Source: a virus (taxonomy: Duplodnaviria; Caudoviricetes). From it: 53,868 bases of DNA. Positions within the stretch are counted from its first letter, which is position 1; each line of letters opens with the position of its first letter. Below are positions 11,482 to 53,868 of this stretch, piece after piece. A program made the position numbers and the translations under genes. The notes beneath the pieces were generated by a model, which worked only from the letters and a program-made list of their open reading frames with translations, had not been told where the DNA came from and ran no database searches. The DNA is taken from positions 1 through 53,868 of IMG/VR virus record IMGVR_UViG_3300022200_008215. One strand, written 5' to 3'.

Positions 11482-11508
11482 TTATATTAGTTTTCTTATA
11501 AATAGCAA

Positions 11509-22422: not shown

Positions 22423-22458
22423 AACTTATAGACTTATATCTTATAAATATATAGATAT

Positions 22459-34568: not shown

Positions 34569-34591
34569 ATACCCCCTTTTACTGTCAATAC

Positions 34592-35146
34592 CTACCAATA
34601 ACCTGAATAATTCTTTTTCATTCCTAAGGATTTGGCATATCTGGTCAATCTACAGCTCCAGTACCCTGGTTTACTTTTGTCTTTCTTTTGATCACAGTTA
34701 TGACGATCAGCAAATGCTTTTCTTCTTTTTGGATCATCCAACTTTACTGATAGATTCTGTCCTCCATCTACTGCTCCAAAGGATACTTTTACTACGTTTC
34801 CTTTTTTATTCTTTGTATAAACATAGAACTTTTTAGATCCTCCCCGTTTAGGTTTGTTTAGTGCTACTTCCCTACCTTGGTATTCTGCTTCATAAACCAT
34901 GGGTAGGTCTAAAGGTATTTTTTCACCTTCAAATATTCCATATTCACCGATATCTGTAGATTCCAATAACTCTAAATCCTGTTCGTTTAACTGTATATTA
35001 CCGTCCCTAAGAGCTTGTCTTGCTTCTGTAAATAGTTGTATAAAGCTTTCGCTGGAGTACCGGTAGACATTCTCATATAAGGAGAGTTTATTGTCTAGGT
35101 GGTACTGGAGTGATGGGCATCCTATTATGTCTCTAATTCTTATCAT
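34592..35146 (-). CDS. Hypothetical phage protein
   Basis: EAEYQGREVALNKP, KKFYVY, KVSFG, RHNC..YWSC basic C-terminal domain. Confidence 0.7.
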   Translation of the reverse strand: MIRIRDIIGCPSLQYHLDNKLSLYENVYRYSSESFIQLFTEARQALRDGNIQLNEQDLELLESTDIGEYGIFEGEKIPLDLPMVYEAEYQGREVALNKPKRGGSKKFYVYTKNKKGNVVKVSFGAVDGGQNLSVKLDDPKRRKAFADRHNCDQKKDKSKPGYWSCRLTRYAKSLGMKKNYSGYW

Positions 35147-35236
35147 TTGAAAATTATTATTAAGTACTCCTCTTATAAATAGTTATTTATATTGGAAGTA
35201 TACTACTCTTTTTAGTTATGTCCTACATTATTAAAA

Positions 35237-35932
35237 TTATACTCCTATAATATTACTAATATTAGCTGTTGCTACACCTATTACATTAGTAATACTATCT
35301 GGTATAACTTCTGTTACTATATTTCCGTACCCTGGTGGTGTGTAGGTAATGTCTAGGTATATTGGATATGTTACATTTTTAAACCATGCTCCTGCAGATC
35401 TAGATATAGCTGAAAGAGGTTCATTATTACTATAATCATAATCATTTCCTAAAACTACAACATTTAATACTCCATTAGTGTTTGCATCCGAAATAGCAGT
35501 ACTATTTAATGTTAGTGTATTATAGGTATCTATAGCCCAGGCTAGTGAAGAAGCCATGTATGCTGTAGGAGAGGAAGGGCTCCAATTATTAAAATCAGCA
35601 GATTGAAAATTGTTTCCATCATCTGAAAATGCTGTACTCTTACCTACCATTACATCGATGGAATCGTAATTAGTTCCGTAGATTTTTAAATCCATAGAAG
35701 TTATAGTTCCGCCTACCCCTGATACATCAAATAAGAAAAATCCTCTACTTACTTCATAGAGTCCTCCTCCTCTTCCCGTTGAATATACTTCCGAGGTAAG
35801 TCCGGTAGTTGTAGATGTAGTAAATTGTGTAAAGCTGTCTGCTGATGTAGCGTCTCTAGCGGCTGCCCAGGAAGTAGTAACTGCACTGTATGCTCTTACT
35901 TCTTTAGAGGCTGTTACTGTTGTTGTTGCCAT
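35237..35932 (-). CDS. Putative virion structural / carbohydrate-binding-like protein
   Basis: Ser/Thr-rich beta-type composition; RGFFLFDVS..ITSMDLKIY. Confidence 0.55.
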   Translation of the reverse strand: MATTTVTASKEVRAYSAVTTSWAAARDATSADSFTQFTTSTTTGLTSEVYSTGRGGGLYEVSRGFFLFDVSGVGGTITSMDLKIYGTNYDSIDVMVGKSTAFSDDGNNFQSADFNNWSPSSPTAYMASSLAWAIDTYNTLTLNSTAISDANTNGVLNVVVLGNDYDYSNNEPLSAISRSAGAWFKNVTYPIYLDITYTPPGYGNIVTEVIPDSITNVIGVATANISNIIGV

Positions 35933-35935
35933 ATC

Positions 35936-36499
35936 TTAAAACTGCTTTTTAGGTAAAAAATATTTACTATTATTATAGTATGAATTTTTAGGGGGTGTAA
36001 TATCGAATTCTTGATATTCTACATCTGGTATGTTGTGTAGATTAGAAGATGTTGTTAACATATTCCACCAGGTTGCTACCCCTCTAGGTTTTATAAGCTG
36101 TGTTAATGAGGAGGATAGGTACCTAAGGCTTTCATCACCATATGTATCGTGAAATATTCCATCATAGGTTGATAAAGTATTTAAATTATCATACCAACTT
36201 CCTTCTATTATAGTAACATTAGGTTTATCAGAGGCCCATTCTTTAGCACGTGGTATAATGTCAGGATGATTTTCAACTATTGTATGAGTGGAGATTTTGT
36301 TTGATTGAATATATCCTGCTGATATACCCATACCAAATCCTATCTCTAAGATATCTCCTCCATTTTGAGTAACATATGCGGCTGACCCAGACATTAATTC
36401 ATCCTCCCAATCCATCATCACTTCTCTTTCGAACCCATCATTACCCATAAAGTATATTCTATTAGATTCAAATGTAAGGCTTTGCGATAAGTAAGTCAT
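35936..36499 (-). CDS. Class I SAM methyltransferase, RMT2/guanidinoacetate-N-methyltransferase-like
   Basis: VMMDWE..LM, ILEIGFGMGI, HTIVENHP, YDGIFHDTY. Confidence 0.85.
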   Translation of the reverse strand: MTYLSQSLTFESNRIYFMGNDGFEREVMMDWEDELMSGSAAYVTQNGGDILEIGFGMGISAGYIQSNKISTHTIVENHPDIIPRAKEWASDKPNVTIIEGSWYDNLNTLSTYDGIFHDTYGDESLRYLSSSLTQLIKPRGVATWWNMLTTSSNLHNIPDVEYQEFDITPPKNSYYNNSKYFLPKKQF

Positions 36500-36513
36500 A
36501 TTGGTTTTTTATT

Positions 36514-38076
36514 TTATGTTATTTGTACCCAAGTACTGTCTGGATTAAAGTATATTATATTATTACCATCATCTATCATATTTCCTACAAGTCTAACTAT
36601 ATTACCACTCCCACTAGGAACAGCTGTTTGTAAATCACCAGCAGTAGTAGAAACATATAAATTATTTCCTTTTCCTGTTTGTGTAAATACAGAACTCTTA
36701 GCCCAACCTCTTAAAAGTATCCCATTACTAGATGCAGTGCCCATAGCAATACCTAACATTTTTGTTCCGTATGTTGCATTGTTTGCGGAAGCTCTAAACC
36801 ACCCAGAATTCAGTCCTGCTGTAGTAAATACAATTAAATCCCCTTCTGCTATTGTACCATTAGTAGTATAAAAAGTTCCATAAAATGTAACTTCACCAGA
36901 ATTATCGGGAGTACCAGTAATTCCTGAGTCATATACTAGATATGAACCTTCATCAAATTGTAAGTATTTTCCAGTAAATGTTAAGGCTGATTCTACTTGT
37001 AGATTATTAGTGGCGTTGATATAAGTTAAGACACCGTTAGCAGTTGTACCAGTAATGCTTCCTGCAAAAGAACTGCCTGAAGTGCCACTTGTACCAGATG
37101 TTCCTGATGATCCTGAAGTACCAGAGGAACCGGAAGTACCGTTTATTCCTGAAGTTCCTGATGAACCTGAGTTACCTGAAGTACCAGAGGAACCGGAAGT
37201 ACCGTTTATTCCTGATGTTCCTGATGAACCTGAGTTACCTGAAGAACCTGATGTTCCGTCTATACCTGAAGTACCAGAGGAACCGGAAGTACCGTTTATT
37301 CCTGAAGTTCCTGATGAACCTGAGTTACCTGAAGTTCCTGATGAACCTGAGTTACCTGAAGTTCCTGATGAACCTGAAGTTCCTGAAGTACCGTTTATAC
37401 CTGAAGTTCCTGATGAACCTGAGTTACCTGAAGTTCCTGATGAACCTGAAGTTCCTGAAGTACCGTTTATTCCTGAAGTTCCTGATGAACCTGAGTTACC
37501 TGAAGTTCCTGATGAACCTGAAGTTCCTGAAGTACCGTTTATTCCTGAAGTTCCTGATGAACCTGAGTTACCGGAAGAACCTGATGAACCTGAAGATCCC
37601 GAAGAACCGGAAGAGCCTGAAGTACCTGAAGAACCTGAAGAACCGGAAGAGCCTGAAGTTCCGGAAGTGCCTGAAGTAGCGGCTGCTTCTTTAGTTCCTA
37701 CTTTTCCGTTACTGTCTATGACTAGTACAGTATCATCAGCTATAGCAGTTAAGTTTGGTAGTTTTAAATCTGATCCGGATACAATTAGTGCTAGTGCACC
37801 AAAGGTTCCCATAGTTACAGTGTTGTCTGCAAATGCTTCTATTACCGGAAGTCCGGCTATGGTATTTACCGAGAATAAAGAATCAGATAAATCATCGTCT
37901 ATTGAAAATAATCTTCCGTTATTTCCATCTACTGCAAATATGTTGGTTCTTCCTTCTGATCCGGAACCCTGTAAAACGATTGATCCTGATACATCTTGTG
38001 TTATGGTCTCTACGTAGTTCAAAGAACTGGTAAAGGACATAATACTTGATCCTGGGGTTATTCTAATATCTGCCAT
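36514..38076 (-). CDS. Fibre-like virion protein with Gly-X-Y (Ser/Thr) repeat region
   Basis: About 200 aa of SGT/SGS/SGN/SGI/NGT triplets between globular domains. Confidence 0.75.
   Translation of the reverse strand: MADIRITPGSSIMSFTSSLNYVETITQDVSGSIVLQGSGSEGRTNIFAVDGNNGRLFSIDDDLSDSLFSVNTIAGLPVIEAFADNTVTMGTFGALALIVSGSDLKLPNLTAIADDTVLVIDSNGKVGTKEAAATSGTSGTSGSSGSSGSSGTSGSSGSSGSSGSSGSSGNSGSSGTSGINGTSGTSGSSGTSGNSGSSGTSGINGTSGTSGSSGTSGNSGSSGTSGINGTSGTSGSSGTSGNSGSSGTSGNSGSSGTSGINGTSGSSGTSGIDGTSGSSGNSGSSGTSGINGTSGSSGTSGNSGSSGTSGINGTSGSSGTSGSSGTSGTSGTSGSSFAGSITGTTANGVLTYINATNNLQVESALTFTGKYLQFDEGSYLVYDSGITGTPDNSGEVTFYGTFYTTNGTIAEGDLIVFTTAGLNSGWFRASANNATYGTKMLGIAMGTASSNGILLRGWAKSSVFTQTGKGNNLYVSTTAGDLQTAVPSGSGNIVRLVGNMIDDGNNIIYFNPDSTWVQIT
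37072..37678 (-). repeat. Coding low-complexity repeat (9-bp units with higher-order 72-bp unit)
   Basis: cctgaagtt/cctgatgaa units; 24-codon unit SGSSGTSGNSGSSGTSGINGTSGT repeated about three times. Confidence 0.9.
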
Positions 38077-38077
38077 A

Positions 38078-38419
38078 TTATTGTATTATTTCTTCTATTG
38101 GTATTGTCCACTCCTCTGTTGCAAGAAGTGTTAGTATTTCTTCATGATTATATTCCGGGTATTCTTCTGAGTATATTAAAGGTCTTCCGTAGATTCCTGC
38201 TAAAACAGTATTTGTTGTTTCTTCTTCAGTTTCAGGATTAATTACTGTGTATGTTTGATCCTCTAAAACTTCATTTATTTCATATTTGATAAATGTTTTA
38301 GAACCATCCACAGAAAGTCTTAAACTCTCTAAAGAGTTTTCATGTATATTATTGAAATCAATTGATCCTGTTGTACTTGTTGGGATTACCAACCATCTTC
38401 TATTTGGGAATGTGCTCAT
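38078..38419 (-). CDS. Hypothetical protein
   Basis: 113 aa; LRLSVDGSKTFIKY, YNHEEIL..L.TEEW. Confidence 0.7.
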   Translation of the reverse strand: MSTFPNRRWLVIPTSTTGSIDFNNIHENSLESLRLSVDGSKTFIKYEINEVLEDQTYTVINPETEEETTNTVLAGIYGRPLIYSEEYPEYNHEEILTLLATEEWTIPIEEIIQ

Positions 38420-38431
38420 ATGTTATAAATA

Positions 38432-39736
38432 TTAACTTAAATTGAATCTTGTTTTATACTGGTTAAAGTTTTGTTTTACTTCGGCTGCAGTGAGTGCTCT
38501 GGTATATACTTTAAATACATCAATACTGCCTCTATAATATGCGTTCAAATTTGTTGCCACACCAATCTTAAAATCTCCTAATGTTATATTCCCGTTTGTA
38601 GTTCTAGAATCTGATAAGATTCCATTTATGTAAACTAGTTTTTTATTATTAACATTGTCCCAAACTAAAACATAGTGATTCCATCCATATTTAAGATTAG
38701 TATTTGGGATTTCATTCCACGAGCCATTTACATTCCAGTGCATACCAACAGACCATCTTGTTCCAAAATGAATACGTGCACTTATCCAATCTCCGAATGC
38801 ACTTTCATTTCTTGTTTTTGTATTTAATGTAGGGTCATCAAAAAATCCCGTAAATTCAAATGTAATTTGAGAATAGGTTCCGGTTAGGTTTGTTTGTATA
38901 TAATCATTCGTACCATCAAAAGTCATTTGAGCATTTGAATCAAAAGATACATTTGATAAATCTATTGTTGAATTTCCTACCAATGGTAAAAGTCCTTGTG
39001 TTGCTGATCTTTCATAGCTTAGAGAGAATTGTGCAGGATGGCTTCCCCATGTAAATTGCACGTCTGCTATTTTTACAGTGGCTCTAACATTGTAGTATCC
39101 GTACATGTAGATAGATAGATATGTACTATTCAGGTCTCGGACTGTTGAGGTGGTGTAGGTTTGGTAGACTCTCTGCCAGGTATGTGTTTTTGTATTATAT
39201 GAGGATGAACTGTTTGCTTGACCGTCGTGAAACCCGTTGGCTCCTTCTGTAGTTTTACAGTATAGTCCTGCTTTGGCGTTTTTACTTAGGTTATCCACCC
39301 ACTGCAACCATGAAATTGTATAGGTGTCTCCGTATCCTTTCCCGTAGGAAGTCCAAGAACCCATCCCTGTGCCGAACCATTTTGCTTTCCACTGCCCGGA
39401 TACGTCGTTCATTACAACGACTGGTTTTTTTAAGACCGGGTCGTATTGCCAGTGAGCGTGGTATGTATTTGCTGCATCTCCGACTCCTCCATTATAGTAA
39501 CCTGTTATATCACCGCCTGCAGCATTGTATGCTCGGATAGCGTTAGGGTGTTTAGTGTTCCATGTTCCGCTAGAAGTAGCGGAGTATGTCGTATAACTAT
39601 CTTGGGCTACTGCGTTCTGGTGGTGTATATAGTTAATGGTAGGTTCTCCTTTAAAAGAATTTCTAGTATCTCCTATATCGTAAGCAAACACCGATCCTGA
39701 TGTTATTGTTCTTCCGTATCCTTGTGCTACTGCCAT
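38432..39736 (-). CDS. LamG/concanavalin-A-like virion protein with inserted domain
   Basis: FDGTNDY, WNHYV, YING, YTRALTAAEVKQNF. Confidence 0.8.
   Translation of the reverse strand: MAVAQGYGRTITSGSVFAYDIGDTRNSFKGEPTINYIHHQNAVAQDSYTTYSATSSGTWNTKHPNAIRAYNAAGGDITGYYNGGVGDAANTYHAHWQYDPVLKKPVVVMNDVSGQWKAKWFGTGMGSWTSYGKGYGDTYTISWLQWVDNLSKNAKAGLYCKTTEGANGFHDGQANSSSSYNTKTHTWQRVYQTYTTSTVRDLNSTYLSIYMYGYYNVRATVKIADVQFTWGSHPAQFSLSYERSATQGLLPLVGNSTIDLSNVSFDSNAQMTFDGTNDYIQTNLTGTYSQITFEFTGFFDDPTLNTKTRNESAFGDWISARIHFGTRWSVGMHWNVNGSWNEIPNTNLKYGWNHYVLVWDNVNNKKLVYINGILSDSRTTNGNITLGDFKIGVATNLNAYYRGSIDVFKVYTRALTAAEVKQNFNQYKTRFNLS
38898..39003. repeat. 106-bp exact direct repeat, copy A
   Basis: Identical to 40234-40339. 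Confidence 0.92.
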
Positions 39737-39737
39737 A

Positions 39738-40913
39738 TTAACTTAAATTAAAACGTGTTTTGTATTGTTGGTAGTTTTGTTGTACTTCCTGTGCTGTTAG
39801 TGCTTTGTTATAGAGTTTAGCTACTGGTATTTCTCCGGTAAAGTACCTGCTGTATCCTCCATTATGTTCATATCTTCCGATATATCTAGTTTTAAGAGCG
39901 CTGTAGGCTGCTGTCCAAACGTTCCCTACATGGTCCCCTCCTTCAGCAATACCGTTTACATAAAACCTCATGTTTGTTCCTCCAGCATCTTGTATGAAAG
40001 CTACATGATAGTATTGGTTTGAATTAAAAGCTGTACTTCCATACCTCCAATATCCAGGAGATACGTTCCAAACAGCTAACTTTCCGTTGAGTAAAGCTAA
40101 CCAGTTGGCGTTAAAGTCATCCGCTTCTGCTGAATTAAAATGCTGTAATGTTCCAGCAGAATTTGTTTTAAATACATATTCAGCAGTCCATCCTTGATTA
40201 GTTGGTGAAATTGTACTATCCGATCCTAAGTCAATATAATCATTCGTACCATCAAAAGTCATTTGAGCATTTGAATCAAAAGATACATTTGATAAATCTA
40301 TTGTTGAATTTCCTACCAATGGTAAAAGTCCTTGTGTTGATGATCGAGTACTGGTAAGGTCTATTGCAGGTGTCGGGTGGCCTTTTTTTTCTAATTGCCA
40401 TCCACTTAGATAGTATCTAGTATTTGCTACTAGGTTAGTAAATCCTACTAAACTAACATAATTAGCTGCTGTGGAGACAGTTCTAGAAACCCTATACCAA
40501 CCATCTCCTGCATCCTGTATAGTCCCTACTCCTGTATTACTTCCTATATTGTACATGTAGACGGTTATATTACTTATAGGAGCTCTGTCTTCTCTTCTAA
40601 GGTAACAAGAAAATGTCCATATGGTTGAGGTTTGATCATAATACAATGGACTTGGTCCGTTTAAGTAACAGTTTCTACTAGTTCCAGGTGCCCATAATAC
40701 TGTATGTAGCCCTTTATATTGTTCAGTTGGATCTGTTATAACGACTTTTCCTTTTGTAATTAATGTCTGGTTTGTACCATCTCCACCCCACAAGTCGTTT
40801 TTAATAAAAGTAGTAGTAGGTTCTCCAATATAGGAATTACTTACATCACCTGTATCGTAAGCGAATACTAAATTATCTTCTCCTGTTGTATTTGGTCCTG
40901 AATGTGATGGCAT
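39738..40913 (-). CDS. LamG/concanavalin-A-like virion protein with inserted domain
   Basis: Start moved to MPSHSGP at 40913; FDGTNDY, YHV, YVNG, YNKALTAQEVQQNY. Confidence 0.8.
   Translation of the reverse strand: MPSHSGPNTTGEDNLVFAYDTGDVSNSYIGEPTTTFIKNDLWGGDGTNQTLITKGKVVITDPTEQYKGLHTVLWAPGTSRNCYLNGPSPLYYDQTSTIWTFSCYLRREDRAPISNITVYMYNIGSNTGVGTIQDAGDGWYRVSRTVSTAANYVSLVGFTNLVANTRYYLSGWQLEKKGHPTPAIDLTSTRSSTQGLLPLVGNSTIDLSNVSFDSNAQMTFDGTNDYIDLGSDSTISPTNQGWTAEYVFKTNSAGTLQHFNSAEADDFNANWLALLNGKLAVWNVSPGYWRYGSTAFNSNQYYHVAFIQDAGGTNMRFYVNGIAEGGDHVGNVWTAAYSALKTRYIGRYEHNGGYSRYFTGEIPVAKLYNKALTAQEVQQNYQQYKTRFNLS
40234..40339. repeat. 106-bp exact direct repeat, copy B
   Basis: Identical to 38898-39003. 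Confidence 0.92.
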
Positions 40914-40914
40914 A

Positions 40915-41562
40915 TTATAGTCCGAATCTTGTTTTAGTTGCGTTATAGTTTTGGAGTATTTCTTGTGCTGATAATGTTCGGTTATATATTTGCACTGTTG
41001 ATATTTTCCCATCAAATAAGTTAGAAGAATCTGTATAAGCTGCTATTCTAACCGCAGTACCTCCTGTAAATGTTGCTGTACTTGAACTAGTATTTACTAA
41101 ATTTCCGTTTAGGTATAATTTCCAACCTGATGTTGTATTAAAAGTAACTGCACCGCACCACCATTTTCCTGTCATCACTCCTGCATTATAAGCAACTGTA
41201 CTCCAAGAACCATTATGTCCCGCTTGTAAAGTAGTGTTGGTTCCAGCCATCCAAAAAGCGTGTTGTCCGTCACCACCTCCACTAATAATATTATTAGTAT
41301 TACCGTCCGGGTTAAACCATGCTATTTTGGTGTAAGACGTTGTTGAGAGCGACACGCTACTTAATTGACACCAGTCGTTGCTTCCATCAAATACAATACT
41401 TCTGTCTGAGTAAGAAGGCCCATTTATTAAAGTTCCATTATTCCCATTCCCGCTTACATCATTCCAAACCGTCCCTGATCCTGGATATGAATTTCTATCA
41501 GCAGCATCTAGATTAAGTATCAATCCGTCCCTAACTATTTTTGGTCCATGAATTTCAGCCAT
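40915..41562 (-). CDS. LamG/concanavalin-A-like virion protein
   Basis: GLILNLDAA..SYPGSGTVWNDVSGNGNNGTL, FDGSND, YNRTLSAQEILQNY. Confidence 0.85.
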   Translation of the reverse strand: MAEIHGPKIVRDGLILNLDAADRNSYPGSGTVWNDVSGNGNNGTLINGPSYSDRSIVFDGSNDWCQLSSVSLSTTSYTKIAWFNPDGNTNNIISGGGDGQHAFWMAGTNTTLQAGHNGSWSTVAYNAGVMTGKWWCGAVTFNTTSGWKLYLNGNLVNTSSSTATFTGGTAVRIAAYTDSSNLFDGKISTVQIYNRTLSAQEILQNYNATKTRFGL

Positions 41563-43913
41563 TACTTATCAAATTCTGTAACTAGTTTTTCTATATCTTT
41601 TCTTTCAGCAAATACTGAGTAGTAGCAGTCTATTGATGTTTTAGATCCTACTATAATACCGTTTGAGGTTACTTTTTCAACCCATAAATCTTGTTTCTTC
41701 CCTATTGAAGTTAAGTTTACAGTAGTTGTATTCTGGTCTACTAGAGCATGCCAGTGATCTGGTAATACAATGGTATTCTCATTGGTTAACCTTCCTCTTA
41801 CGTATACTGAATGTTCTGGTCCCTCTAATACTCCGTATTGAAGTTTTTTACCTTGTTTGGTTGGGTGATCAATAATAAATGATTTTACAGTTGCTGTAAG
41901 TGTTCCTGTTACATTTAAAATTGAACCGTCAAATGTTAAGTTTGATTCTACCGTACCTGTTCCATCACCATCATAGGTTATAACTCCATTTGTAGTTGTT
42001 CCTGTTAATGGAAGTATCCCACTGGTACCTGATGATCCGGAAGAACCTGATGAGCCTGAAGTTCCTGAAGAACCTGATGAGCCTGAAGATCCGGAAGTAC
42101 CGTCTATACCTGAAGTTCCTGAAGAACCTGAGTTACCGGAAGAACCTGATGAACCGGAAGATCCGGAAGTACCGTTTATACCTGAAGTTCCTGAAGAACC
42201 TGAGTTACCGGAAGAACCTGATGATCCGGAAGATCCGGAAGTACCGTCTATACCTGAAGTTCCTGAAGAACCTGAGGTACCTGAAGAACCTGATGAACCG
42301 GAAGAACCTGATGTTCCATCTATACCTGAAGTTCCTGAAGAACCTGAGTTACCGGAAGAACCTGATGAACCGGAAGATCCGGAAGTACCGTTTATACCTG
42401 AAGTTCCTGAAGAACCTGAGCTACCTGAAGAACCGGATGAACCGGAAGAACCTGATGTTCCATCTATACCTGAAGTTCCTGAAGAACCTGAGTTACCGGA
42501 AGAACCTGATGATCCGGAAGATCCGGAAGTACCGTCTATACCTGAAGTTCCTGAAGAACCGGAGGAACCGGAAGAACCGGAGGAACCGGAAGAACCTGAT
42601 GTTCCATCTATACCTGAAGTTCCTGAAGAACCTGATGTTCCATCTATACCTGAAGTTCCTGAAGAACCTGATGAACCGGAAGAACCAGAGGAGCCGGAAG
42701 AACCGGAGGAACCGGAAGAACCTGATGTTCCATCTATACCTGAAGTTCCTGAAGAACCTGAGGAACCGGAAGAACCTGATGAACCGGAAGAGCCTGATGA
42801 TCCGGAAGAACCTGATGTTCCTGAAGAACCTGATGTTCCATCTATACCTGAAGTTCCTGAAGAACCTGAGGTACCTGAAGAACCTGATGAGCCTGAAGTA
42901 CCGTCAGTACCACTTGATCCTGAAGAGCCTGAAGTTCCAGATGTACCGGCAATTTGTCCAACAGACGTTATGACGTAAGAATAATTTGAACTACCTTCAG
43001 TATAAAATATAACATCACGTGATGGTGCATCTAAATTAGTTAAATAAATTCTACAAATCATTCTATTCGTAGGGTCTATTGAAATTGTTGTTAATACAAT
43101 ATCAACGTCTACTTGCCCTGGATTAACTGCATCTACATAAGGTATTTTAAAAATATTTGAAGATATTGAAGAACCTATCGGAGTACCTGAAGAATCTGTC
43201 AATTGTATTTCAACGTAAGCTTCAACATCCGCATTTGCTGCTGGTAATAAACAATATACAATAAAATTTTGAAAACCAGCTGGTATAATTGAATAACCAA
43301 GCTCTGGTGATAAAAATGATTCAACCAAAACATCAGATGCACTACCACTTAAAGATGTTAATTTTGTTACTTCACCAGTTGTTGTTGGTACCAAACTTAA
43401 TTCTTTATAACCAGAAATATCTGAATTTATACTTTCATTAAAATAATATATTTGACCTCTAGATATACCGTCAACTCCGCTAGAACCTGATGAGCCAGAG
43501 CTTCCGCTTGTACCATCTGTACCGGATGTTCCATCTGTCCCGCTAGTACCATTAGTTCCTGAACTACCTGAAGTACCGTTGGTTCCACTAGTTCCGTTTG
43601 TGCCTGATGTTCCTGAAGAACCGGAAGTACCTGACGACCCCGAAGTTCCACTTGATCCTGAAGAGCCGGAAGTACCGTCTATACCTGAAGTGCCAGAGGT
43701 AGCTGCTGCTTCTTTAGTTCCTATATTACCGCTTGCATCTACTACCAGGACTGTATCATCAGCTATGGCCGGTAGATTTGTAAGTTGTAAGTTTGAGCCA
43801 GTTATACTATTTGTTATATTGATTGAACCTGTTAGTTCAATATAATCTGTTATACGGAGAGAATTTAACACAGCGTCAGATCCGCTGGTTATAACTTTAC
43901 GCCAATTAGGCAT
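41562..43913 (-). CDS. Fibre-like virion protein with two Gly-X-Y (Ser/Thr) repeat regions
   Basis: SGS/SGT/GID triplet tracts; C-terminal KSFIIDHP...LEGPE..VYVRG...AERKD fibre-type domain. Confidence 0.78.
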   Translation of the reverse strand: MPNWRKVITSGSDAVLNSLRITDYIELTGSINITNSITGSNLQLTNLPAIADDTVLVVDASGNIGTKEAAATSGTSGIDGTSGSSGSSGTSGSSGTSGSSGTSGTNGTSGTNGTSGSSGTNGTSGTDGTSGTDGTSGSSGSSGSSGVDGISRGQIYYFNESINSDISGYKELSLVPTTTGEVTKLTSLSGSASDVLVESFLSPELGYSIIPAGFQNFIVYCLLPAANADVEAYVEIQLTDSSGTPIGSSISSNIFKIPYVDAVNPGQVDVDIVLTTISIDPTNRMICRIYLTNLDAPSRDVIFYTEGSSNYSYVITSVGQIAGTSGTSGSSGSSGTDGTSGSSGSSGTSGSSGTSGIDGTSGSSGTSGSSGSSGSSGSSGSSGSSGSSGTSGIDGTSGSSGSSGSSGSSGSSGSSGSSGTSGIDGTSGSSGTSGIDGTSGSSGSSGSSGSSGSSGTSGIDGTSGSSGSSGSSGNSGSSGTSGIDGTSGSSGSSGSSGSSGSSGTSGINGTSGSSGSSGSSGNSGSSGTSGIDGTSGSSGSSGSSGTSGSSGTSGIDGTSGSSGSSGSSGNSGSSGTSGINGTSGSSGSSGSSGNSGSSGTSGIDGTSGSSGSSGSSGTSGSSGSSGSSGTSGILPLTGTTTNGVITYDGDGTGTVESNLTFDGSILNVTGTLTATVKSFIIDHPTKQGKKLQYGVLEGPEHSVYVRGRLTNENTIVLPDHWHALVDQNTTTVNLTSIGKKQDLWVEKVTSNGIIVGSKTSIDCYYSVFAERKDIEKLVTEFDK
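42020..42945 (-). repeat. Coding low-complexity repeat (SGS/SGT/GID triplets)
   Basis: About 300 codons of 9-bp units; second shorter tract at about 43470-43700. Confidence 0.9.
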
Positions 43914-44280
43914 TTGCTACCTCCTTTCTTACTTTACAGTTATTAAAGTGCCATCTTAACATAGCATTTTTTTGCCCTTCTTCTAAACAGTGGGGGCATT
44001 TTGCCCGTAAGTGATTGCCTGTAAAGTTATCACCTCTGTTTAATGCTGATTTTCTCATTTTTTCTCTAGATTCTTCACTTCTAGGTGGGGCAGCTAATCT
44101 AGCTCGTCTAATGGCTTGTTTATGTTTAGCTGTAAGTAAAACGAGATTGAAGGTGTCGTCGGAGCCTCCTAGACTTTTTGGGATAATGTGATGACTCTCA
44201 TAATATGTAGAATCATTTCTGTGTCTTCTAAGAGATTGTCTTCCAGAGCAGAGCGCTCTGCAGTGTTCCATGTAGTTCAT
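43906..44280 (-). pseudogene. HNH homing endonuclease remnant, apparently internally deleted, with NUMOD3-like tail
   Basis: YYESHHIIPKSLGGSDDTFNLVLLTA runs straight into KHKQAIR..SEESREKMR..CPHC; expected REHxxxH segment absent. Confidence 0.6.
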
Positions 44281-44291
44281 ATTTATTTAAA

Positions 44292-44344
44292 TTATGGTTG
44301 GATACACCGAATGTGCGGTGCCCACTTCCCTTGAGGACCTATAA
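44292..44344 (-). ncRNA. Candidate structured cis-regulatory RNA
   Basis: GC-rich island in an AT-rich gap just downstream of TATTTATT; foldable by eye as a three-way junction. Confidence 0.45.
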
Positions 44345-44395
44345 TACTTTAATAAATATTAGCTTTTTTATATTTCTCTAATTTAACCAGTCTTT

Positions 44396-44872
44396 TTACT
44401 CAAAAAAATCTTTTCTATAAAATTTACCTAGGATGTTATCATTGATGTAGTTGTCTCTATTTTCTAATACCTCTTTTGTAAACAGGTACTTACATTCGAA
44501 GTATGTCAATCTTTTCTTATCTTGAACGTATTTTAATATTTCTCTTTTAAAGTCTTCTTTTTTACCTTCTTTTACTAATTCTAAGATTTCTTTTTGAGAT
44601 CCGTGATAAGTTTTCCAATCCGACTCTGTTATTACTTTCTTTTTTAAAGGTGTTCTCCCCCCTACTCCTTTGCTTTTTCTCTCCTCTTTGAGAGTTTCTA
44701 ACTCTTTTTTACCTAACCTCTTACTTCTTTCAAAATAAAGTACTTTTTTACCTATGTACTTTTTCCCTGTCGGTATGTGAGTTACTTCGTAAATAAACCC
44801 GTAAGTATCTTCTGGTATACTTTCTATGTTAGTTACAGGATTTCCTTGGTATATCCATAATTTTTCTGTCAT
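44396..44872 (-). CDS. GIY-YIG-like nuclease-domain protein
   Basis: YGFIYEVT..TGKKYIGKK, WKTYHGS, FKREIL, YFE, YINDNI. Confidence 0.75.
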   Translation of the reverse strand: MTEKLWIYQGNPVTNIESIPEDTYGFIYEVTHIPTGKKYIGKKVLYFERSKRLGKKELETLKEERKSKGVGGRTPLKKKVITESDWKTYHGSQKEILELVKEGKKEDFKREILKYVQDKKRLTYFECKYLFTKEVLENRDNYINDNILGKFYRKDFFE

Positions 44873-45747
44873 GATTTTAGTGATTTTATAATTTGATCAT
44901 CGTCAAAGACATCTTCTTGTTTGAAATACGCGCATGAGGAGATATCTTGAGATAGTGCAAATGGTTGATATAAGTTTTTTTGAAAATCAACCTGTAGTGT
45001 AAATTGATTTGCTTTAATATTTTTATGTAAAGTATATCCGTATATTTCTGGTTTAGTGGTGATCCAGCAAACTGTTGATGGTAGAGCAAAGGATGCTGCT
45101 AAGTGTTGGGAGAAAGAATCAATAAGAAGCCTTTTTTCTGCAAGTTGGAGAAGGATTGCTATGCTTCTAAATCCGTCTAGTGCCTGTAAAGTGTTTGGGT
45201 ATATTTTTTGATCTTTTCTTTTTATATGTACTATCGAGTAATCATCTTTAAACTCCTCTATAACTCTCAATACAGTTGATTCTGGTATATCTCTTGTCCA
45301 AGAGTAATTATATTCTTGACCTACTGGACCTCCGTTTGGTTGGATTGCTAGTATTGGTTTTTCTGTTTTATAGAAAGGTCTAAAGTAATCTATTTCTGCT
45401 TGTGTAAGGTATATTTGAGGAGCTTCTCCATTATATTTTAACTCCCACTGCTTGCACCATATATTTAATAAATGATCTTGTTCTAAGATAAAATCCGTAT
45501 GTGTGTAAGGATCTGTAAAATATAGCTTACAATCTGCTTCTCTGTTGTAGATATATGTTTTATAGAAAGGTCCATGTTCTCCGTTTTGATGAACGTAGTC
45601 TACTGCTGGGTTGTGTTTAAATACATCTGGGTAGTTGCATACTACATGTATTATATCTTTAGGATGTGCTTTCCTAATTACTTTTAAAATAGCTGTTGCT
45701 AGTATATGCTTACCTAATCCTCCATCTATGTGAAATACTACTGTCAT
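44869..45747 (-). CDS. Glycosyltransferase family 9-like (heptosyltransferase fold)
   Basis: GGLGKHIL, VFKHNP, LLIDSFSQHLAA, TVCW, YGY. Confidence 0.75.
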   Translation of the reverse strand: MTVVFHIDGGLGKHILATAILKVIRKAHPKDIIHVVCNYPDVFKHNPAVDYVHQNGEHGPFYKTYIYNREADCKLYFTDPYTHTDFILEQDHLLNIWCKQWELKYNGEAPQIYLTQAEIDYFRPFYKTEKPILAIQPNGGPVGQEYNYSWTRDIPESTVLRVIEEFKDDYSIVHIKRKDQKIYPNTLQALDGFRSIAILLQLAEKRLLIDSFSQHLAASFALPSTVCWITTKPEIYGYTLHKNIKANQFTLQVDFQKNLYQPFALSQDISSCAYFKQEDVFDDDQIIKSLKS

Positions 45748-45762
45748 AAGTTCATTGAATCA

Positions 45763-45794
45763 GAAAGATAGTAAAAATATAGATAGTAAACTAC
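45763..45794 (-). promoter_or_regulatory. Bacteroidota sigma70-type promoter (variant)
   Basis: GTAG-N20-TATCTTTC upstream of ATG 45747. Confidence 0.45.
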
Positions 45795-45800
45795 TATATA

Positions 45801-47159
45801 CTATGGATTAATCTTAACCCAACCTCCGTCTGTATAGAAATACAAGTTAGGAGCACTATCAGATCCGGATACCATTAGCATTCCAGCTTCAGAACCGGAA
45901 GGAGTTGAATCTCTATTTACAAGCTGTATAATACCTGTGTAATTTCCAGTGATGTCTCCTGTATTTCCTGTTACTGTTAAGCTTTGAACAACTGCTTGGT
46001 AGTCTCTACTTGAGCTTATATTAGTTCCTCCTAGTACTACTGATCCTGTGTGTGCTGTATAATTACTAATACCCCCCACTATTGCGCTATCTCTTCCAGA
46101 TATTATGTTACTTTCTCCTCCAATAATAGCTGAGCTTATTCCTGTTGCTGTTATTATATTCTCTCCTCCTCCAATAATAGCTGCTGTGCTTCCAGATACT
46201 ATGCTTCCTTTTCCCCCGAGTAAGATTGAGCAATTCCCTAATGTCGTGCCCCCTGATCCTCCAATAGTAACTGAGTTATCCCCTGATGTGGTATTACATA
46301 TGCCGAGAGCTATAGCTCCTACTCCTGTAGCTGTGCTTCGCTGTCCGCCGGCGAGAGCATAGGTTTGTGTAGCTTTATTACATGATCCTCCTAATACTGT
46401 TGCATAATCTGCTGAAGCAGTTGCATTATTTCCCCCTATAACTGTTGAATACTGTCCTGATGATATAGAATTAAAATTAAGATTATTTGGTTTAATAGCA
46501 CCTGTGTTTGAACCTGTTTGAAAAATCTCTCCTGTTGCTGTTGCTGTTACTCCTGTTAACCCTGATCCGTCTCCTGTAAAAGATCCTGTGAAAGATCCTG
46601 TAAATGGGTTTGCTAGGGATATAAACTGTGCTGAAGATGAAATAATATTGGCAGGAATATTTGTAATTCCTGTATATGAAATTTGTCCTGATCCTGATAC
46701 TAGGTTAGATGGTAAAGTAAGACTTGTTAACCCTGATCCGTCTCCTACAAAAGATCCTGTGAAAGATCCTGTGAAAGGGTTTGTTAGAGTTATAAACTGT
46801 GCTGAGGAAGAAACGATATTAGCAGGAATATCGGTAATTCCTGTATATGAAATTTGTCCTGATCCTGATACTATATTAGGTGGTAAAGAGAAAGAAAGAT
46901 TAGTAAGTTCTGAACCATCACCTGAAAATGATCCACTAAATGAACCGCTAACTCCTGTAGTATTTATAAAATCAACATTAACGCTTGACCCGCTTATAAT
47001 TAAAGAGCCCGTAATAGATGCATCACCGTTTCTAGATCCATCCCACTCAGCTACTGCTGTTATACCTGTTAGACCTGTTCCATCTCCATAAAAACCAGCT
47101 GATGCTGATACACTACCAGTGATTATTAAGGAGTTATTTAATACGTGTTGATTAGCCAT
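45801..47159 (-). CDS. Tail-fibre-like protein with beta-helical repeats
   Basis: GSFxGDGSGLT repeats and S.IIGG..N beta-roll repeats. Confidence 0.7.
   Translation of the reverse strand: MANQHVLNNSLIITGSVSASAGFYGDGTGLTGITAVAEWDGSRNGDASITGSLIISGSSVNVDFINTTGVSGSFSGSFSGDGSELTNLSFSLPPNIVSGSGQISYTGITDIPANIVSSSAQFITLTNPFTGSFTGSFVGDGSGLTSLTLPSNLVSGSGQISYTGITNIPANIISSSAQFISLANPFTGSFTGSFTGDGSGLTGVTATATGEIFQTGSNTGAIKPNNLNFNSISSGQYSTVIGGNNATASADYATVLGGSCNKATQTYALAGGQRSTATGVGAIALGICNTTSGDNSVTIGGSGGTTLGNCSILLGGKGSIVSGSTAAIIGGGENIITATGISSAIIGGESNIISGRDSAIVGGISNYTAHTGSVVLGGTNISSSRDYQAVVQSLTVTGNTGDITGNYTGIIQLVNRDSTPSGSEAGMLMVSGSDSAPNLYFYTDGGWVKINP
46545..46886 (-). repeat. Tandem 171-bp (57 aa) internal duplication
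   Basis: LPPNIVSGSGQISYTGITDIPAN...GDGSGLTSLT followed by LPSNLVSGSGQISYTGITNIPAN...GDGSGLTGVT. Confidence 0.88.
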
Positions 47160-47171
47160 GTTTTGATTTAT

Positions 47172-49598
47172 TTATACTTGTCGTTTAAATGCTGTGATTA
47201 ACATATTTACTTCGTAAGTACCGCTGGCAGCGTCTAACTGCAAGGTTGCAGTTGAACCATCAGAAGTGATATTAAATGATGTGAGGTTAATACCATCGGT
47301 TGTTTCGGTATGAGAATCGTTAATTGTAGTTCCTCCTGATTGATCCCAAGCTCCTAATAGAGTTCCAATTTTCTTTTCATCTTCACCGGTATTAGTTAAA
47401 GAATAATCTGCTTTAAATCCTGTATACCCGGTACCTGATATTGAAAATTGTTTTATATTGTGAGTTCCTGATAAGGAGCTTGAATGAAAGTGAATTAATT
47501 CTACTCCTGGAGCTCCTGGAAATCCTGTTGAACTTACTGTAATTGTATTAGAAACATCTAATGCTCCCGATACTATCAAGGATCCTGTAATAGATGCATC
47601 ACCATCTCTAGATCCATCCCATTCTGAGGTTATTCCTGTTAGCCCTGTTCCGTCTCCTACAAAAGATCCTGAAAATATAGAGCCTGATATAGAGGCTACT
47701 TTTGTAAAGTCAACTATATTATTAGAACCTGATACTATAAAGGAGCCGGTAATGTTTGCATTTCCATTATGAGTTCCATCCCATTCAACCCCTGTTAAGT
47801 TAGATCCATCCCCGTAATAAGATGTAGCTACTACTGACTGACTTACTAATAACGAACCGCTTATAGTTACGGTATTTATAGAGAAGTCACCACCGATTAG
47901 AGGATTACCTGATCCGGATGCTATATAAAGTCGGTTGTTTTCAGTTGTGTTTGGCGTTGATGGGCCTGCTGTATTACCTATGTATATATTGCTTTGTCCG
48001 CTTTTAAGATTGAGTCCTGCACAAGTTCCTATTGCAGTATTAAAGTTACCACCAACTGTACTTACATTGAAAAGGTTAGTAAGTGTGCGATAACCTACTC
48101 CTGTATTGTATCCGTTTCCTGCTACGCTTTTCAAAGAATCATAACCCAAACTAGTGTTCCCAGTACCTGTTGTTAATACACAGAGTGTACTAAACCCAAT
48201 ACCAGTATTTCCAGATCCATCTCCTATAGCTGATGCCATAGCGCAAGATCCTATTACAGTGTTAGCATTTCCAGTATGGGTTTGTGCTGCTTTGAACCCT
48301 ACTGCTGTAGTGTCTCCTCCTATACATTTTCCTGCACAGGAACCTATTGCAATATGTCTGTACGATACTGTAGGGGTATTTGCTGCTGCGCAGTATCCTA
48401 TAGCTATACTATCTGTTGGGGTCCCTATAGAACTACTATAATTCTGATAACCTAGTGAAAGGGTAGATGTAGCTTTATTAAAAATACTTATATTTGTATC
48501 TACGGTTACTCTTCCATTAAGGTCAGATTCTCCATATACTGTAAGTGATCCGGTTACTGTAGAAGATCCTGATACTATTATTGGACCTACTAGAGTAAGG
48601 CTTCCTGTAATGCCAGCTGAGCCTGTATATGGGAATGTGTCTGCAGATACTCCGGTTAAACCAGAGCCATCTCCTACAAAAGAGCCACTAAATATAGATC
48701 CTGATATAGCTGTTACGTTTGTAAAATCTATATTAATATCCGATCCACTTATAATAAGGGATCCTGTAATAGATGCATCACCATCTCTAGATCCATCCCA
48801 TTCTTGTGTTACGGTTAGTCCTGTTAAGTTAGTTCCATCTCCATGAAATGAACCTGAAAAGATAGAGGCTGATACCTGACTGCTAAAGGTAATCTGACCT
48901 GTTCCAAAATCCCCGTACATTAACGGTGTGTCCGATCCTGTATTATGAATGTAAAGTTTATTTGATTGAGCTGTATTTATTTCAGGACCTGCCTGGTATC
49001 CAATGTATATATTATCATCTCCAGAGGTGAGGGTAATCCCAGCTTCTTTCCCGATTGCAATATTGTTATTACCGCTGGCTGCACCACCTAACGCTCCATA
49101 ACCTATTACTGTAGATCCAGATGCATCGGTTGCGTTATCTAGGGATTGGTATCCAATTGCTATGTTATCTACTCCTATTAAATTTTCTCCTGATTGGTAT
49201 CCTATTAATATGTTTTTATTAGCTCCTGAAATATTTCCTCCAGCCTGTTCTCCTATAAGTATATTTTCATTCGTATCATCTAAGTATAAACTCCCTGATA
49301 GTCTAAGAACTGTCCCGTCAAAATTAAAATTAGGCTCCCCCTGTAGAGACCCACTTAATCCAGTAGCAGTCAGCATGTACCCGCTTACATTATTTGTTAT
49401 AGAAACTGAGCCTGTTGATCCAGCACCAATAGGTATAGTGTAGAAGTCCCCTGCAGTTGTATCGAAATGGAGTCTTAGTGTAGCTCCATCATCATGAATC
49501 GAACTTGAATAAAATACAGAGCGGAAGTTATCATCCATCTGTTGATGTGAAAGAGAGGTACCTAATTCTAACCTATATGTAATTCCCGGGATTGCCAT
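47172..49598 (-). CDS. Tail-fibre-like protein with YadA-head-like N.AIG repeats
   Basis: Two blocks of NIAIG/NTGVG repeats, three EWDG...ITGS modules. Confidence 0.72.
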   Translation of the reverse strand: MAIPGITYRLELGTSLSHQQMDDNFRSVFYSSSIHDDGATLRLHFDTTAGDFYTIPIGAGSTGSVSITNNVSGYMLTATGLSGSLQGEPNFNFDGTVLRLSGSLYLDDTNENILIGEQAGGNISGANKNILIGYQSGENLIGVDNIAIGYQSLDNATDASGSTVIGYGALGGAASGNNNIAIGKEAGITLTSGDDNIYIGYQAGPEINTAQSNKLYIHNTGSDTPLMYGDFGTGQITFSSQVSASIFSGSFHGDGTNLTGLTVTQEWDGSRDGDASITGSLIISGSDINIDFTNVTAISGSIFSGSFVGDGSGLTGVSADTFPYTGSAGITGSLTLVGPIIVSGSSTVTGSLTVYGESDLNGRVTVDTNISIFNKATSTLSLGYQNYSSSIGTPTDSIAIGYCAAANTPTVSYRHIAIGSCAGKCIGGDTTAVGFKAAQTHTGNANTVIGSCAMASAIGDGSGNTGIGFSTLCVLTTGTGNTSLGYDSLKSVAGNGYNTGVGYRTLTNLFNVSTVGGNFNTAIGTCAGLNLKSGQSNIYIGNTAGPSTPNTTENNRLYIASGSGNPLIGGDFSINTVTISGSLLVSQSVVATSYYGDGSNLTGVEWDGTHNGNANITGSFIVSGSNNIVDFTKVASISGSIFSGSFVGDGTGLTGITSEWDGSRDGDASITGSLIVSGALDVSNTITVSSTGFPGAPGVELIHFHSSSLSGTHNIKQFSISGTGYTGFKADYSLTNTGEDEKKIGTLLGAWDQSGGTTINDSHTETTDGINLTSFNITSDGSTATLQLDAASGTYEVNMLITAFKRQV

Positions 49599-49639
49599 GT
49601 TATGTCTTTATTATAAATATCTTTATATTAATTACTTTT

Positions 49640-50926
49640 CTAACCTAGATAAGTTGTTCTACTAGTTTCATACCAGTAGTTTCCATCAGATACAAAACTA
49701 ATTGTATATGTTTTACTTTTTGCCACTGTTAAGTTTCCTTGTACTTTAAAATTAGTATCAAATGATACCGTATTTGTAGATAATATGTTAGGTTCTATAA
49801 TCACTGTTGCCTCTATCCCTGATATTATTTCTCCTGAAGTAAATGTAATATCTCCAGTGATTGGAGCTTTTACAATTTTGCTTGTGGCAATACCCAGGTC
49901 TTGTGTGTCTACAGGGTTTATGGTATACTTTCCTCTCATCTGTCCGTTAACATCTAAGGTTACGGAAGGGGCATTTGTTGCAATACCGACTCTTTGGTTT
50001 GATTTAAATGTTGCAATAGAAGTTGCACTAGCGTAGGTTTCGTCAGTAGATGATATAATTGAAAAAGAATTCTCCCCTGTGGTTGGGGTTCTGCTACTGT
50101 ATTCTGATAAGCTAATTACTACGTGTCCTCCTTTAGAGTTTGTGCTTGTAAGAGGGCCAGAGAGCATTACTCCATATTCGTTAATATTACTGCCTAGTAC
50201 ATTACTTTGGTAAACTGTAGATGGAATAGGTCTTATAATAGACTGTGTACCCCTATCTCCTGTTTTCTGAACACCTATTCCTTCAGCTCCTAGAACGGAT
50301 AGTTGTCTATTTGTGTTACTATCAAATATACCTAAACCTATTGAGGTAAGTGTTGAAATAGTGTTACTATTAATTTGTAAATTGAGCTTATTTACAGCCT
50401 CTAGGTATATGTTACTTCCTTGGGTATCGGTTGTATCGGTTTTTCCTATCTGTCCAAGTCTAGTTGTCCCATTATAGAATACTATTTGAGCTTTGTTGGT
50501 TGGAGTACTTACTCCTGATGTTGCAAGTCTTATCGTTGCTGTGTTATTAATATCACTAACTATATGAAGTCTGTCGTTCACTAAGTCTGTTCCTATACCT
50601 ACACGGAAACGAGTATTATCGTAATACAGCCTAGAGCTTCCTCCGAAGACTCCGTTATTATTATATTGAATAGCTCCGTTAGGTCCGTCAGGATTGCTTC
50701 CTGATATAACTGTAGTGGTTGTTCCTCCGTTAATACTCACTGATTGATACCGGTCAGGTCCGTAATCTTCTGTTCCTGTATCTAAGGAATCACTTCCGGT
50801 ATAGTGAAGTCTGAGTTCTGATCCGCTATTGTGAATAGAGCTTGAATAGAAGAGTTGGGACATGTTTCTGTCCATTTCTTCATACGTTAATGCTGATCCT
50901 TTAAGTGTTCTTAAAATAATACTCAT
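49640..50926 (-). CDS. Tail-fibre-like protein
   Basis: KGSALTYEEMDRN anchor motif, GAIQYNNNGVFGG, RVGIGT / VGIATNAP..TLDVNG. Confidence 0.72.
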   Translation of the reverse strand: MSIILRTLKGSALTYEEMDRNMSQLFYSSSIHNSGSELRLHYTGSDSLDTGTEDYGPDRYQSVSINGGTTTTVISGSNPDGPNGAIQYNNNGVFGGSSRLYYDNTRFRVGIGTDLVNDRLHIVSDINNTATIRLATSGVSTPTNKAQIVFYNGTTRLGQIGKTDTTDTQGSNIYLEAVNKLNLQINSNTISTLTSIGLGIFDSNTNRQLSVLGAEGIGVQKTGDRGTQSIIRPIPSTVYQSNVLGSNINEYGVMLSGPLTSTNSKGGHVVISLSEYSSRTPTTGENSFSIISSTDETYASATSIATFKSNQRVGIATNAPSVTLDVNGQMRGKYTINPVDTQDLGIATSKIVKAPITGDITFTSGEIISGIEATVIIEPNILSTNTVSFDTNFKVQGNLTVAKSKTYTISFVSDGNYWYETSRTTYLG

Positions 50927-53754: not shown

Positions 53755-53868
53755 GTTTGTTTTATTCTATATAGTATAAATATCTTATTTTTATGTTTTA
53801 CTTTTAATTTTATGGCTCTACTCCTGTGAAGTATAGAACCTGTGGGCAAAGTGAGCTTGAATATACTG

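Follow-up and report, generated by a model that had tools for sequence, protein, structure and literature searches.

Several described systems come close to the RNA element reported here. The c-di-GMP-II riboswitches (RF01786) are short GC-rich structured 5' elements built with a kink-turn and a pseudoknot, and some of their members are found in phages. The put RNAs of phage HK022, which are promoter-proximal antiterminators, consist of two stem-loops acting on RNA polymerase; the sites recognized by ribosomal protein S15 are protein-binding three-way-junction operators with a G.U/G-C motif. The element analyzed here is a three-way-junction leader RNA at positions 44291-44345, on the minus strand, of the phage record IMGVR_UViG_3300022200_008215. 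The complete IMG/VR record, with its 53,868 bases, was analyzed and is referred to as the window; it is estimated to represent about one third of a genome, and all positions are those of the window unless another locus is named.

The leader shares with c-di-GMP-II the character of a short GC-rich structured 5' element. Like HK022 put, it is encoded by a phage, acts in cis, folds right after a promoter or promoter-like box and heads a long operon; unlike put, it forms a three-way junction, keeps a fixed short distance to a start codon and has no terminators seen downstream. With the S15-type operators it shares the three-way junction, the invariance of the pairs next to that junction and a conserved G.U beside a G-C or C-G pair near a start codon, but no Rfam ribosomal-leader family is matched. 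The leader is apparently a new and uncatalogued family of a known type of element, the structured mRNA leader, well supported, with hundreds of members in public viral contigs, one of them within a cultivable phage-host pair, and tied to a gene that determines host recognition.

An IMG/VR-wide screen reported 8,495 unnamed candidates, including structured cis-regulatory RNA candidates upstream of phage structural and replication genes, such as the gp20 and gp32 leaders (Fremin, Bhatt and Kyrpides 2023, PMC10690425). As described in its main text, these candidates resemble the leader in being covarying folds at most 25 nucleotides (nt) from a start codon in IMG/VR contigs. A term search of that main text did not find the words tail or fiber, and the leader may be one of the unnamed candidates in the supplementary lists. 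A description of the leader motif was not found in the literature searched; one further article (PMC9004378) was set aside, since it deals with a glutamine riboswitch unrelated to the leader.

Comparative evidence for a three-armed RNA fold

Covariation shows the segment 44291-44345 on the minus strand to be a genuine RNA fold with three arms, and a strongly conserved one. The first homologues were loci encoding relatives of the N-terminus of the tail-fibre protein, whose upstream regions were compared. The elements in these relatives were ordered as a TATTTAT box, a closing stem (P1), a bulged nucleotide, GG, a CC-loop-GG hairpin (P2), AAG (junction strand J2/3), then URG, a hairpin, a 2-nt bulge and CYA (together the P3 arm), a single A (J3/1), CC and the second strand of the closing stem, after which a short A/U-rich spacer led to the fibre ATG.

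A degenerate pattern of this core, which forced some positions to be constant, matched at least 120 IMG/VR stretches, and 95 distinct instances, including the window, were kept after discarding GC-rich chance matches, duplicates and one false match (L136:5046-5103). Under a structure written by hand, 96.6% of the 1,686 pair-cells in these 95 sequences held standard pairs, compared with 84.6% in shuffled data (0/500 shuffles reached the observed value); both sides had changed in 227 cells against 69 expected, and sliding the partners by 1-3 columns left 31-46% of the cells paired. RNAalifold, which did not receive the hand-written structure as input, predicted 17 of the 18 pairs identically.

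A covariance model, R1, was built from the 95 distinct homologues (63 positions, 18 pairs). Run against the window with its filters off, R1 gave one site, 44286-44349 on the minus strand (62.7 bits, E = 9e-19), the second-best match in the window reaching only 10.3 bits. The first 100 pattern loci yielded 75 matches of 49-74 bits, one per locus, together with a further 21-bit match that was regarded as false; with the 16 matches from the other 20 pattern loci, the total was 91/120 among the matches listed.

As an ascertainment control, an alignment of 40 fibre N-termini was used to choose loci by protein alone, and at least 530 IMG/VR stretches were matched. The best 80 of these, each taken with 700 nt of upstream sequence, formed the protein-chosen set, which comprised 60 distinct sequences. 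The leader was present in all of the best 80 loci (44-74 bits), ending 3-17 nt 5' of the matched start codon in 79 of them and 112 nt away in the other (L305); an earlier protein-anchored set had contained it in 21 of 23 loci. The alignment of the 60 distinct sequences was fitted to R1, which favours pairing, while the sequences themselves were not selected by RNA; 97.1% of their cells were paired compared with 85.9% in shuffles (0/500), 12 of the 18 pairs had changed on both sides, and slid controls gave 31-47%. Covariation upstream of MPNWRKV-type homologues, which the initial annotation had suggested examining, is therefore strong, and the absence of conservation and covariation in related phages, which it had named as the outcome that would overturn its proposal, is not what these loci displayed.

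Among the 95 pattern-collected sequences, in which P1 spans pairs 5-88 to 13-81 (alignment A1), both partners had changed at six of the eight P1 pairs, whereas GG/CC was invariant. In the 60 protein-chosen sequences, one of the two top pairs of P1 was G-C in 60 and the other in 59, with one A-U. Their P1 bulge was an A (30 sequences), a U (27) or a C (3); the nucleotide next to the P1 CC was mostly an A (32) or a G (24), which forms U-A or U.G, and one P1 pair was U.G in 23/60. Both bottom pairs of P2 were C-G in 60/60, and its third pair covaried. The J2/3 strand AAG was nearly constant (A 59, A 60, G 60), and the J3/1 A was invariant (60/60). At the base of P3 the pairs were U-A (60), G-C (44) or A-U (16), and G-C (60), followed by a pair that was G.U in 50 and A-U in 8; the inner P3 pairs had changed on both sides in 20 and 38 of the sequences. 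Because the U.G in P1 and the G.U in P3 would be mismatched on the opposite strand, the fold belongs to the sense-strand RNA.

Fold of the leader in the window and variation across the family

The whole leader (P1-P2-AAG-P3-A-P1', 44291-44345) is supported by the covariance-model match, the covariation and RNAalifold, and the minus-strand sequence quoted in the initial annotation was present at its coordinates. The 5' strand of P1 (44338-44345) comprises five nucleotides that form A-U pairs (44341-44345 with 44291-44295), the bulged A44340 and GG (44338-44339, paired with 44296-44297), and its 3' strand (44291-44297) reads CC and AUAAU. The P2 hairpin (44328-44337) is formed by 44335-44337 with 44328-44330 (U.G, C-G, C-G) around the loop UCAA (44331-44334); a change at 44337 in relatives from runs X2 and X3 converts the unusual U.G of the window to C-G. 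The AAG of J2/3 (44325-44327) leads into the P3 arm (44299-44324), in which a UGG/CCA base (44322-44324 with 44299-44301) and a 2-nt 3' bulge AU (44302-44303) are followed by a G.U pair, a C-G pair and a variable hairpin (together 44316-44321 with 44304-44309; loop CACAUU at 44310-44315). The single A of J3/1 is at 44298, and an A/U-rich spacer (44281-44290) separates P1 from the first start codon, a gap that measures 6-21 nt in 92/96 instances.

Folding of the window element as a single sequence was not significant (-12.2 kcal/mol against -10.8 +/- 2.5 for shuffles, z = -0.56), with 58/200 shuffles folding equally well or better, and neither was folding of its 131-nt context (z = -0.55). Since the single-sequence fold is no better than that of shuffles, the evidence beyond chance rests on the comparison. 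That comparison supports the helices that had been recognized by eye in the window, in which a compact structured RNA combines a closing stem with a small hairpin and an arm of the UGG...CCA type, and the start of the element just downstream of a TATTTAT element was likewise confirmed in the window and in its relatives.

For the anatomy of the family, 96 distinct instances were counted, the 95 collected by pattern plus that of Flavobacterium phage vB_FspM_immuto (immuto). The RNAs are about 55-70 nt long. In its lower part, P1 contains 3-9 pairs (mode 6), mostly A-U or G.U, followed by the 1-nt bulge and the two G-C pairs; the bulge was most often a U (61), otherwise an A (30), a C (3) or a dinucleotide (2). 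P2 consists of two or three C-G pairs capped mainly by GNRA loops, GAAA being the commonest, and also by UUCG-type loops. The 3' bulge of P3 was AA in 45, AU in 30 and UA in 12, and the tip of P3 is free in one subclass, while a second one has a near-constant GGCAUAA loop on a longer stem (24 and more).

In this long-P3 subclass (e.g., L189 824-892 and L104 2420-2488) the stem varies under a loop that is nearly always GGCAUAA. Some 40 nt further downstream, the start codon and the initial bases of the Pro codon read (U)AUGCC, to which this loop is complementary. The CAUAA end of the loop resembles the anticodon loop of the initiator tRNA. Members of the short-P3 subclass, the window included, do not have the constant loop. 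Two other pairings between the leader and the fibre start were considered and rejected: that of the leader UUGGC with GCCAA, as immuto alters the leader side with no matching change, and that of GGCA at the P3 base with AUGCC, as 10/60 sequences have an A there and an unchanged start.

Comparison with known RNA families

No Rfam 15 model (n = 4227) matched the window at its gathering score. At E <= 10, the region 44100-44550 gave four weak and irrelevant matches, all of them at or below 15.8 bits and none to c-di-GMP-II, and at E <= 1 ten canonical homologous loci gave no match. The Infernal search that the initial annotation had recommended therefore matched no family, and its suggestion of a partial resemblance to c-di-GMP-II was not upheld at the gathering score, at E <= 10 in the window or in the ten homologous loci. 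The fold supported by covariation is a plain three-way junction without kink-turn or pseudoknot, in which no further conserved complementary segments were seen; the leader differs from c-di-GMP-II in these features, in the lack of a model match and in the nature of the downstream gene, which encodes a tail fibre.

These searches bear on two of the alternative explanations. If the junction were an aptamer for a small molecule (a cyclic dinucleotide or a signal of infection), its ligand would stabilize P1 and alter initiation 6-21 nt downstream. The closed P1, the invariant junction nucleotides, the conserved G.U and the fixed short distance to the start codon would suit such a riboswitch, which, with no known family matched, would be an orphan class. 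Against it, the conserved unpaired nucleotides are very few (AAG, A and two A/U bulges), the downstream gene is structural rather than one for an enzyme or a transporter, neither the c-di-GMP-II nor any other riboswitch model matched, and neither a terminator nor an alternative pairing was seen 3' of the motif. Many hosts of these phages, as Bacteroidota, probably do without Shine-Dalgarno-led initiation; expression platforms would be hard to see in such hosts and may escape recognition. On balance we consider a riboswitch decidedly unlikely.

That the leader is a small ribozyme which cleaves itself and so trims the fibre mRNA at its 5' end appears exceedingly improbable. A three-way junction with an invariant core is also found in hammerhead-type ribozymes, but no model for hammerhead, twister, twister-sister, pistol, hatchet or other ribozymes matched, and the known ribozyme classes have far more conserved unpaired core nucleotides than the leader.

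Association with fibre genes and distribution

Its placement, with a TATTTAT box 4-11 nt before its start and a start codon 6-21 nt past its end, marks the element as the probable 5' leader of fibre genes across a large group of Flavobacterium-type (immuto-like) phages. A fibre open reading frame (ORF) lay directly 3' of the leader in 90/96 distinct instances, and this, together with its presence in the protein-chosen loci, bears out the assignment to the fibre gene made in the initial annotation. The fibre genes behind the leader begin MP(N/S)W(K/R)K, and in 85/88 automatically called MP.W starts the fibre began 12-24 nt past the conserved ACC. The leader was single-copy per genome and always on the sense strand; no second copy was found in the window.

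Immuto, the host of which is Flavobacterium sp. LMO8, carries one copy in 160 kb (53.3 bits; TATTTAT box near NC_055915.1:137889), located between a hypothetical gene and gp052, which is annotated as a 'putative tail fiber-like protein', and its leader has a compensatory GA/UC in place of GG/CC. An exact 24-mer of the leader had no match in IMG/VR, the fibre N-terminus had none among GenBank phages (tblastn, E = 1e-3), a second leader query found nothing, and the DNA searches retrieved immuto phages only. A strict pattern, applied to one genome per prokaryotic species (bacteria and archaea), gave three matches, none of which passed R1, so that within the limits of this pattern the motif looks virus-only.

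Across 81 loci the conserved part of the fibre was observed to be the first ~20 residues, MP(N/S)WKK(V/L)I.SGS.A, with complete divergence beyond. Such a pattern would suit a fibre with a constant adaptor to the baseplate and distal parts that can be exchanged. One locus (L097, 2501 and 3757) has tandem fibre-like genes with similar N-termini, of which the one starting MAEWKKVI has only the box and the one starting MPNWRKVI has the full leader. A GGAG-type Shine-Dalgarno sequence stands 3' of P1 in about 11/96 instances (L097, L141, L161, L166, L209 and L214 among them), most spacers being A/U-rich; hosts or modes of initiation may differ within the leader family.

The TATTTAT box and transcription

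A promoter-like box, TATTTATT, is located at 44351-44358 on the minus strand, just 5' of the leader. The sequence (A/C)TATTTATA occurred at 21 sites on the coding strand of the window (e.g., 53775-53782, 49612-49619, 22442-22449 and 11497-11504) and at 7 on the opposite one. Of the 21 sense-strand TATTTATW boxes, 16 lay wholly within the intergenic 3.8% of bases, 2-94 nt before start codons. An exact TATTTAT was present at most 70 nt upstream of the motif in 87/96 instances, in 74 of which it was 4-11 nt before the first P1 pair, and in 11/86 loci a hairpin with a T-run directly preceded the box. The box is probably the promoter of this phage group; it reads as the reverse complement of the T4 late-promoter consensus, TATAAATA.

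A position immediately 3' of a promoter-like box, at the head of a same-strand module of about 9 kb, is also what would be expected of put-like antitermination, in which the nascent fold would modify RNA polymerase for read-through of the fibre module, and the retention of the leader upstream of inserted endonuclease genes would agree with it. However, terminator-like sites were not enriched within the module (10 against 8.1 expected in 34000-50000), none of them being convincing on the coding strand, and the tight spacing to the start codon would be left unexplained, which makes this mechanism very unlikely. No intrinsic terminator was found at the leader site itself.

Proposed function of the leader

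The reading that we favour, with middling confidence, is that of a post-transcriptional cis-acting leader, in which initiation at the first ORF would be governed by a macromolecule bound at the junction, be it a protein or the 30S subunit, and the paired 5' end would be protective. If the TATTTAT box is the phage promoter, the fold would lie at the extreme 5' end of the fibre mRNA, and its invariant junction could be where a protein of the phage or the host, or the 30S subunit, docks. With the end of P1 inside the ribosome footprint, occupancy of the junction would set the frequency of initiation at the first ORF, and this frequency would in turn determine the dosage or timing of the fibre, while the base-paired 5' end would shield the long fibre mRNA from 5'-end-dependent decay. 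A small-molecule partner at the junction is less likely than a macromolecule. The latter is favoured because the conserved part consists of the junction and its flanking pairs, not of loops or long single strands (the leader has only ~7 unpaired core nucleotides); because the capping loops are interchangeable stable types (GNRA or UUCG) and the P3 tip is free; and because the downstream gene encodes a component of the virion, which is produced in fixed stoichiometry.

Several observations weigh against this reading. The leader has no known binding partner, the start codon lies outside P1, a covarying alternative pairing of the expression-platform kind was looked for in the leader and not found, and it is not obvious why the mere tuning of translation should call for an invariant junction. 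Two of the TATTTATA boxes are only 2-4 nt from a start codon, an awkward distance for a -10-type promoter, and the contigs of the single metatranscriptome with part of the region (X1) span the neighbouring HNH and SegE-like genes and stop short of the leader. The MAEWKKVI paralogue of L097, which has the box without the fold, indicates that not every such gene needs it. In eight loci an endonuclease gene or its remnant lies between the leader and the fibre ORF, and because of this separation any effect on fibre translation would be indirect there.

The fold might instead act only as a passive 5' stabilizer, hiding the 5' terminus of a long late mRNA with no specific binding. The start of P1 4-11 nt after the promoter-like box would leave the 5' end base-paired, the P2 caps are thermodynamically stable GNRA or UUCG-type loops, and the leader is kept where an endonuclease gene has come to lie between it and the fibre ORF. 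A stable stem would suffice for that role, however, and the invariant AAG and A, the fixed G.U and the identities of the junction pairs, which hold although P1 and P3 have diverged freely, would be unexplained; we regard passive stabilization as unlikely. It is also unlikely that the leader represents a new sensing or ribosome-docking class of RNA that gates fibre synthesis, either an orphan riboswitch responding to a metabolite or second messenger of the infection state or a structured RNA that replaces the Shine-Dalgarno helix by direct contact with the 30S platform, acting in phages whose hosts bypass Shine-Dalgarno pairing.

The family offers a handle on late-gene dosage in phages of Bacteroidota, the translation-initiation signals of which are little understood, and its invariant junction with variable arms makes an RNA small enough (~55 nt) for direct biochemical and structural work.

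Endonuclease genes at the leader/fibre junction

In the window, the ORF next to the leader is an HNH homing-endonuclease gene (43906-44280, minus strand; 124 residues, a shortened form; phrog_655, E = 2.3e-18). It uses the leader-proximal start position, and its end overlaps the beginning of the collagen-repeat tail-fibre gene (41562-43913, minus strand; 783 residues starting MPNWRKV; Pfam Collagen, E = 9.1e-55; PHROG tail-fibre families), the start of which is preceded by a GGAGG overlapping the end of the HNH ORF. As for a free-standing homing endonuclease, the ORF 43906-44280 encodes a nuclease domain (PF01844, E = 8.9e-6, above the cut-off) and presence/absence polymorphism was found at a single site.

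An ORF other than that of the fibre occupied the leader-proximal position in 6/96 instances (the window, L094, L095, L115, L122 and L187). These included a 174-residue HNH_3 protein (L095, 1984-2508), a 178-residue protein with a GIY-YIG-like start and no Pfam match (L094, 1207-1743), a 241-residue NUMOD1 protein with a weak GIY-YIG match (L187, 10522-11247) and shortened HNH forms of 81 (L122, 1550-1795) and 67 residues (L115, 1443-1646); a remnant of 16 codons was present in L098 (2458-2508). The window HNH protein could be aligned with the versions found at this junction in L095, L094, L122, L115 and L098, some of them longer and others shorter. Most of the junction ORFs share a C-terminal CPHC...WHF-x-NCK...EV-x-HA module, with a stop codon that overlaps the fibre ATG behind a GGAGG. 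HNH, HNH_3 and GIY-YIG-like heads are thus seen on one C-terminal module as a decay series at a single junction, and several of these endonucleases start MPNY, resembling the MPNW of the fibre.

In a contig of run X3, 44286 was joined to 43816 through 67 other letters, which represents an HNH-less allele. With this allele and the intact and decayed copies at the junction, the insertion of the HNH gene between the leader and the fibre gene, already proposed in the initial annotation, is well supported. A leader travelling with the HNH gene was considered and rejected, as 78 loci with HNH relatives and 13 loci with synteny of the two upstream genes had neither similarity to it (nhmmer) nor an R1 match.

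Fibre codon 5 was CGT in 6/8 insert-linked alleles and in 0/85 insert-free ones, and codon 2 was CCT or CCC in 8/8 and 9/85, respectively. This pattern would be expected if the endonucleases cut the insert-free junction, their own alleles being protected, and gives a hint of such a putative cleavage. The extreme conservation of the leader and the first ~20 codons could have made the junction a homing site for endonuclease genes.

The window HNH gene resembles the T4-like seg/mob homing endonucleases in its intergenic position, the conserved target adjoining it, the presence/absence polymorphism, the decay series and the exchangeability of HNH and GIY-YIG heads on one C-terminal module. It differs from them in that its target lies where a structured 5' leader meets the first fibre codons and in that the endonuclease ORF takes the leader-proximal start. 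A homing-endonuclease hot spot is in this way documented at the leader/ORF junction with its full decay series.

The clustering of endonuclease genes at the junction, the conservation of the leader and ~20 codons next to a completely diverged remainder of the fibre, and the absence of the fibre module from the site in close relatives could also reflect a DNA-only element, a handle for homing or recombination in fibre-gene exchange, the RNA fold of which would be functionless. Selection on double-stranded DNA, however, would yield neither compensatory changes in 12/18 pairs nor strand-specific G.U pairs, and this explanation is highly improbable.

Genomic site of the leader

The similarity of the window to cultured phages was weak, and was to immuto only. 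The leader lies in a 115-nt minus-strand spacer, with a SegE-type GIY-YIG-domain gene on its 5' side and the short HNH gene on its 3' side, at the upstream edge and head of a fibre module of about 9.2 kb (35147-44395, minus strand), which is missing at this site in the closest syntenic relatives. In these contigs a single 107-residue ORF replaces the block (L080, 6347-6672); L080 and L082 have the SegE-like gene, ~330 nt and then a homologue of window 34592-35146. The fibre-like ORFs of the block have 783, 215, 425, 434, 113, 520, 187 and 231 residues. No tRNA or tmRNA was found in the window (ARAGORN). A 325-residue ORF at 41996-42973 on the plus strand is antisense to the collagen-repeat region of the fibre, and is a repeat artefact, not a gene.

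The SegE-type gene (44396-44872, minus strand; Pfam PF19835, E = 5.3e-29) encodes 158 residues with the nuclease-like domain alone and, judged on the related loci, is not a mobile insert here. It was observed to follow the gene of 292 residues in 13/13 related loci, at 53-78% identity, and its relatives are labelled 'NAD synthetase' by PHROG 447 and in the immuto record.

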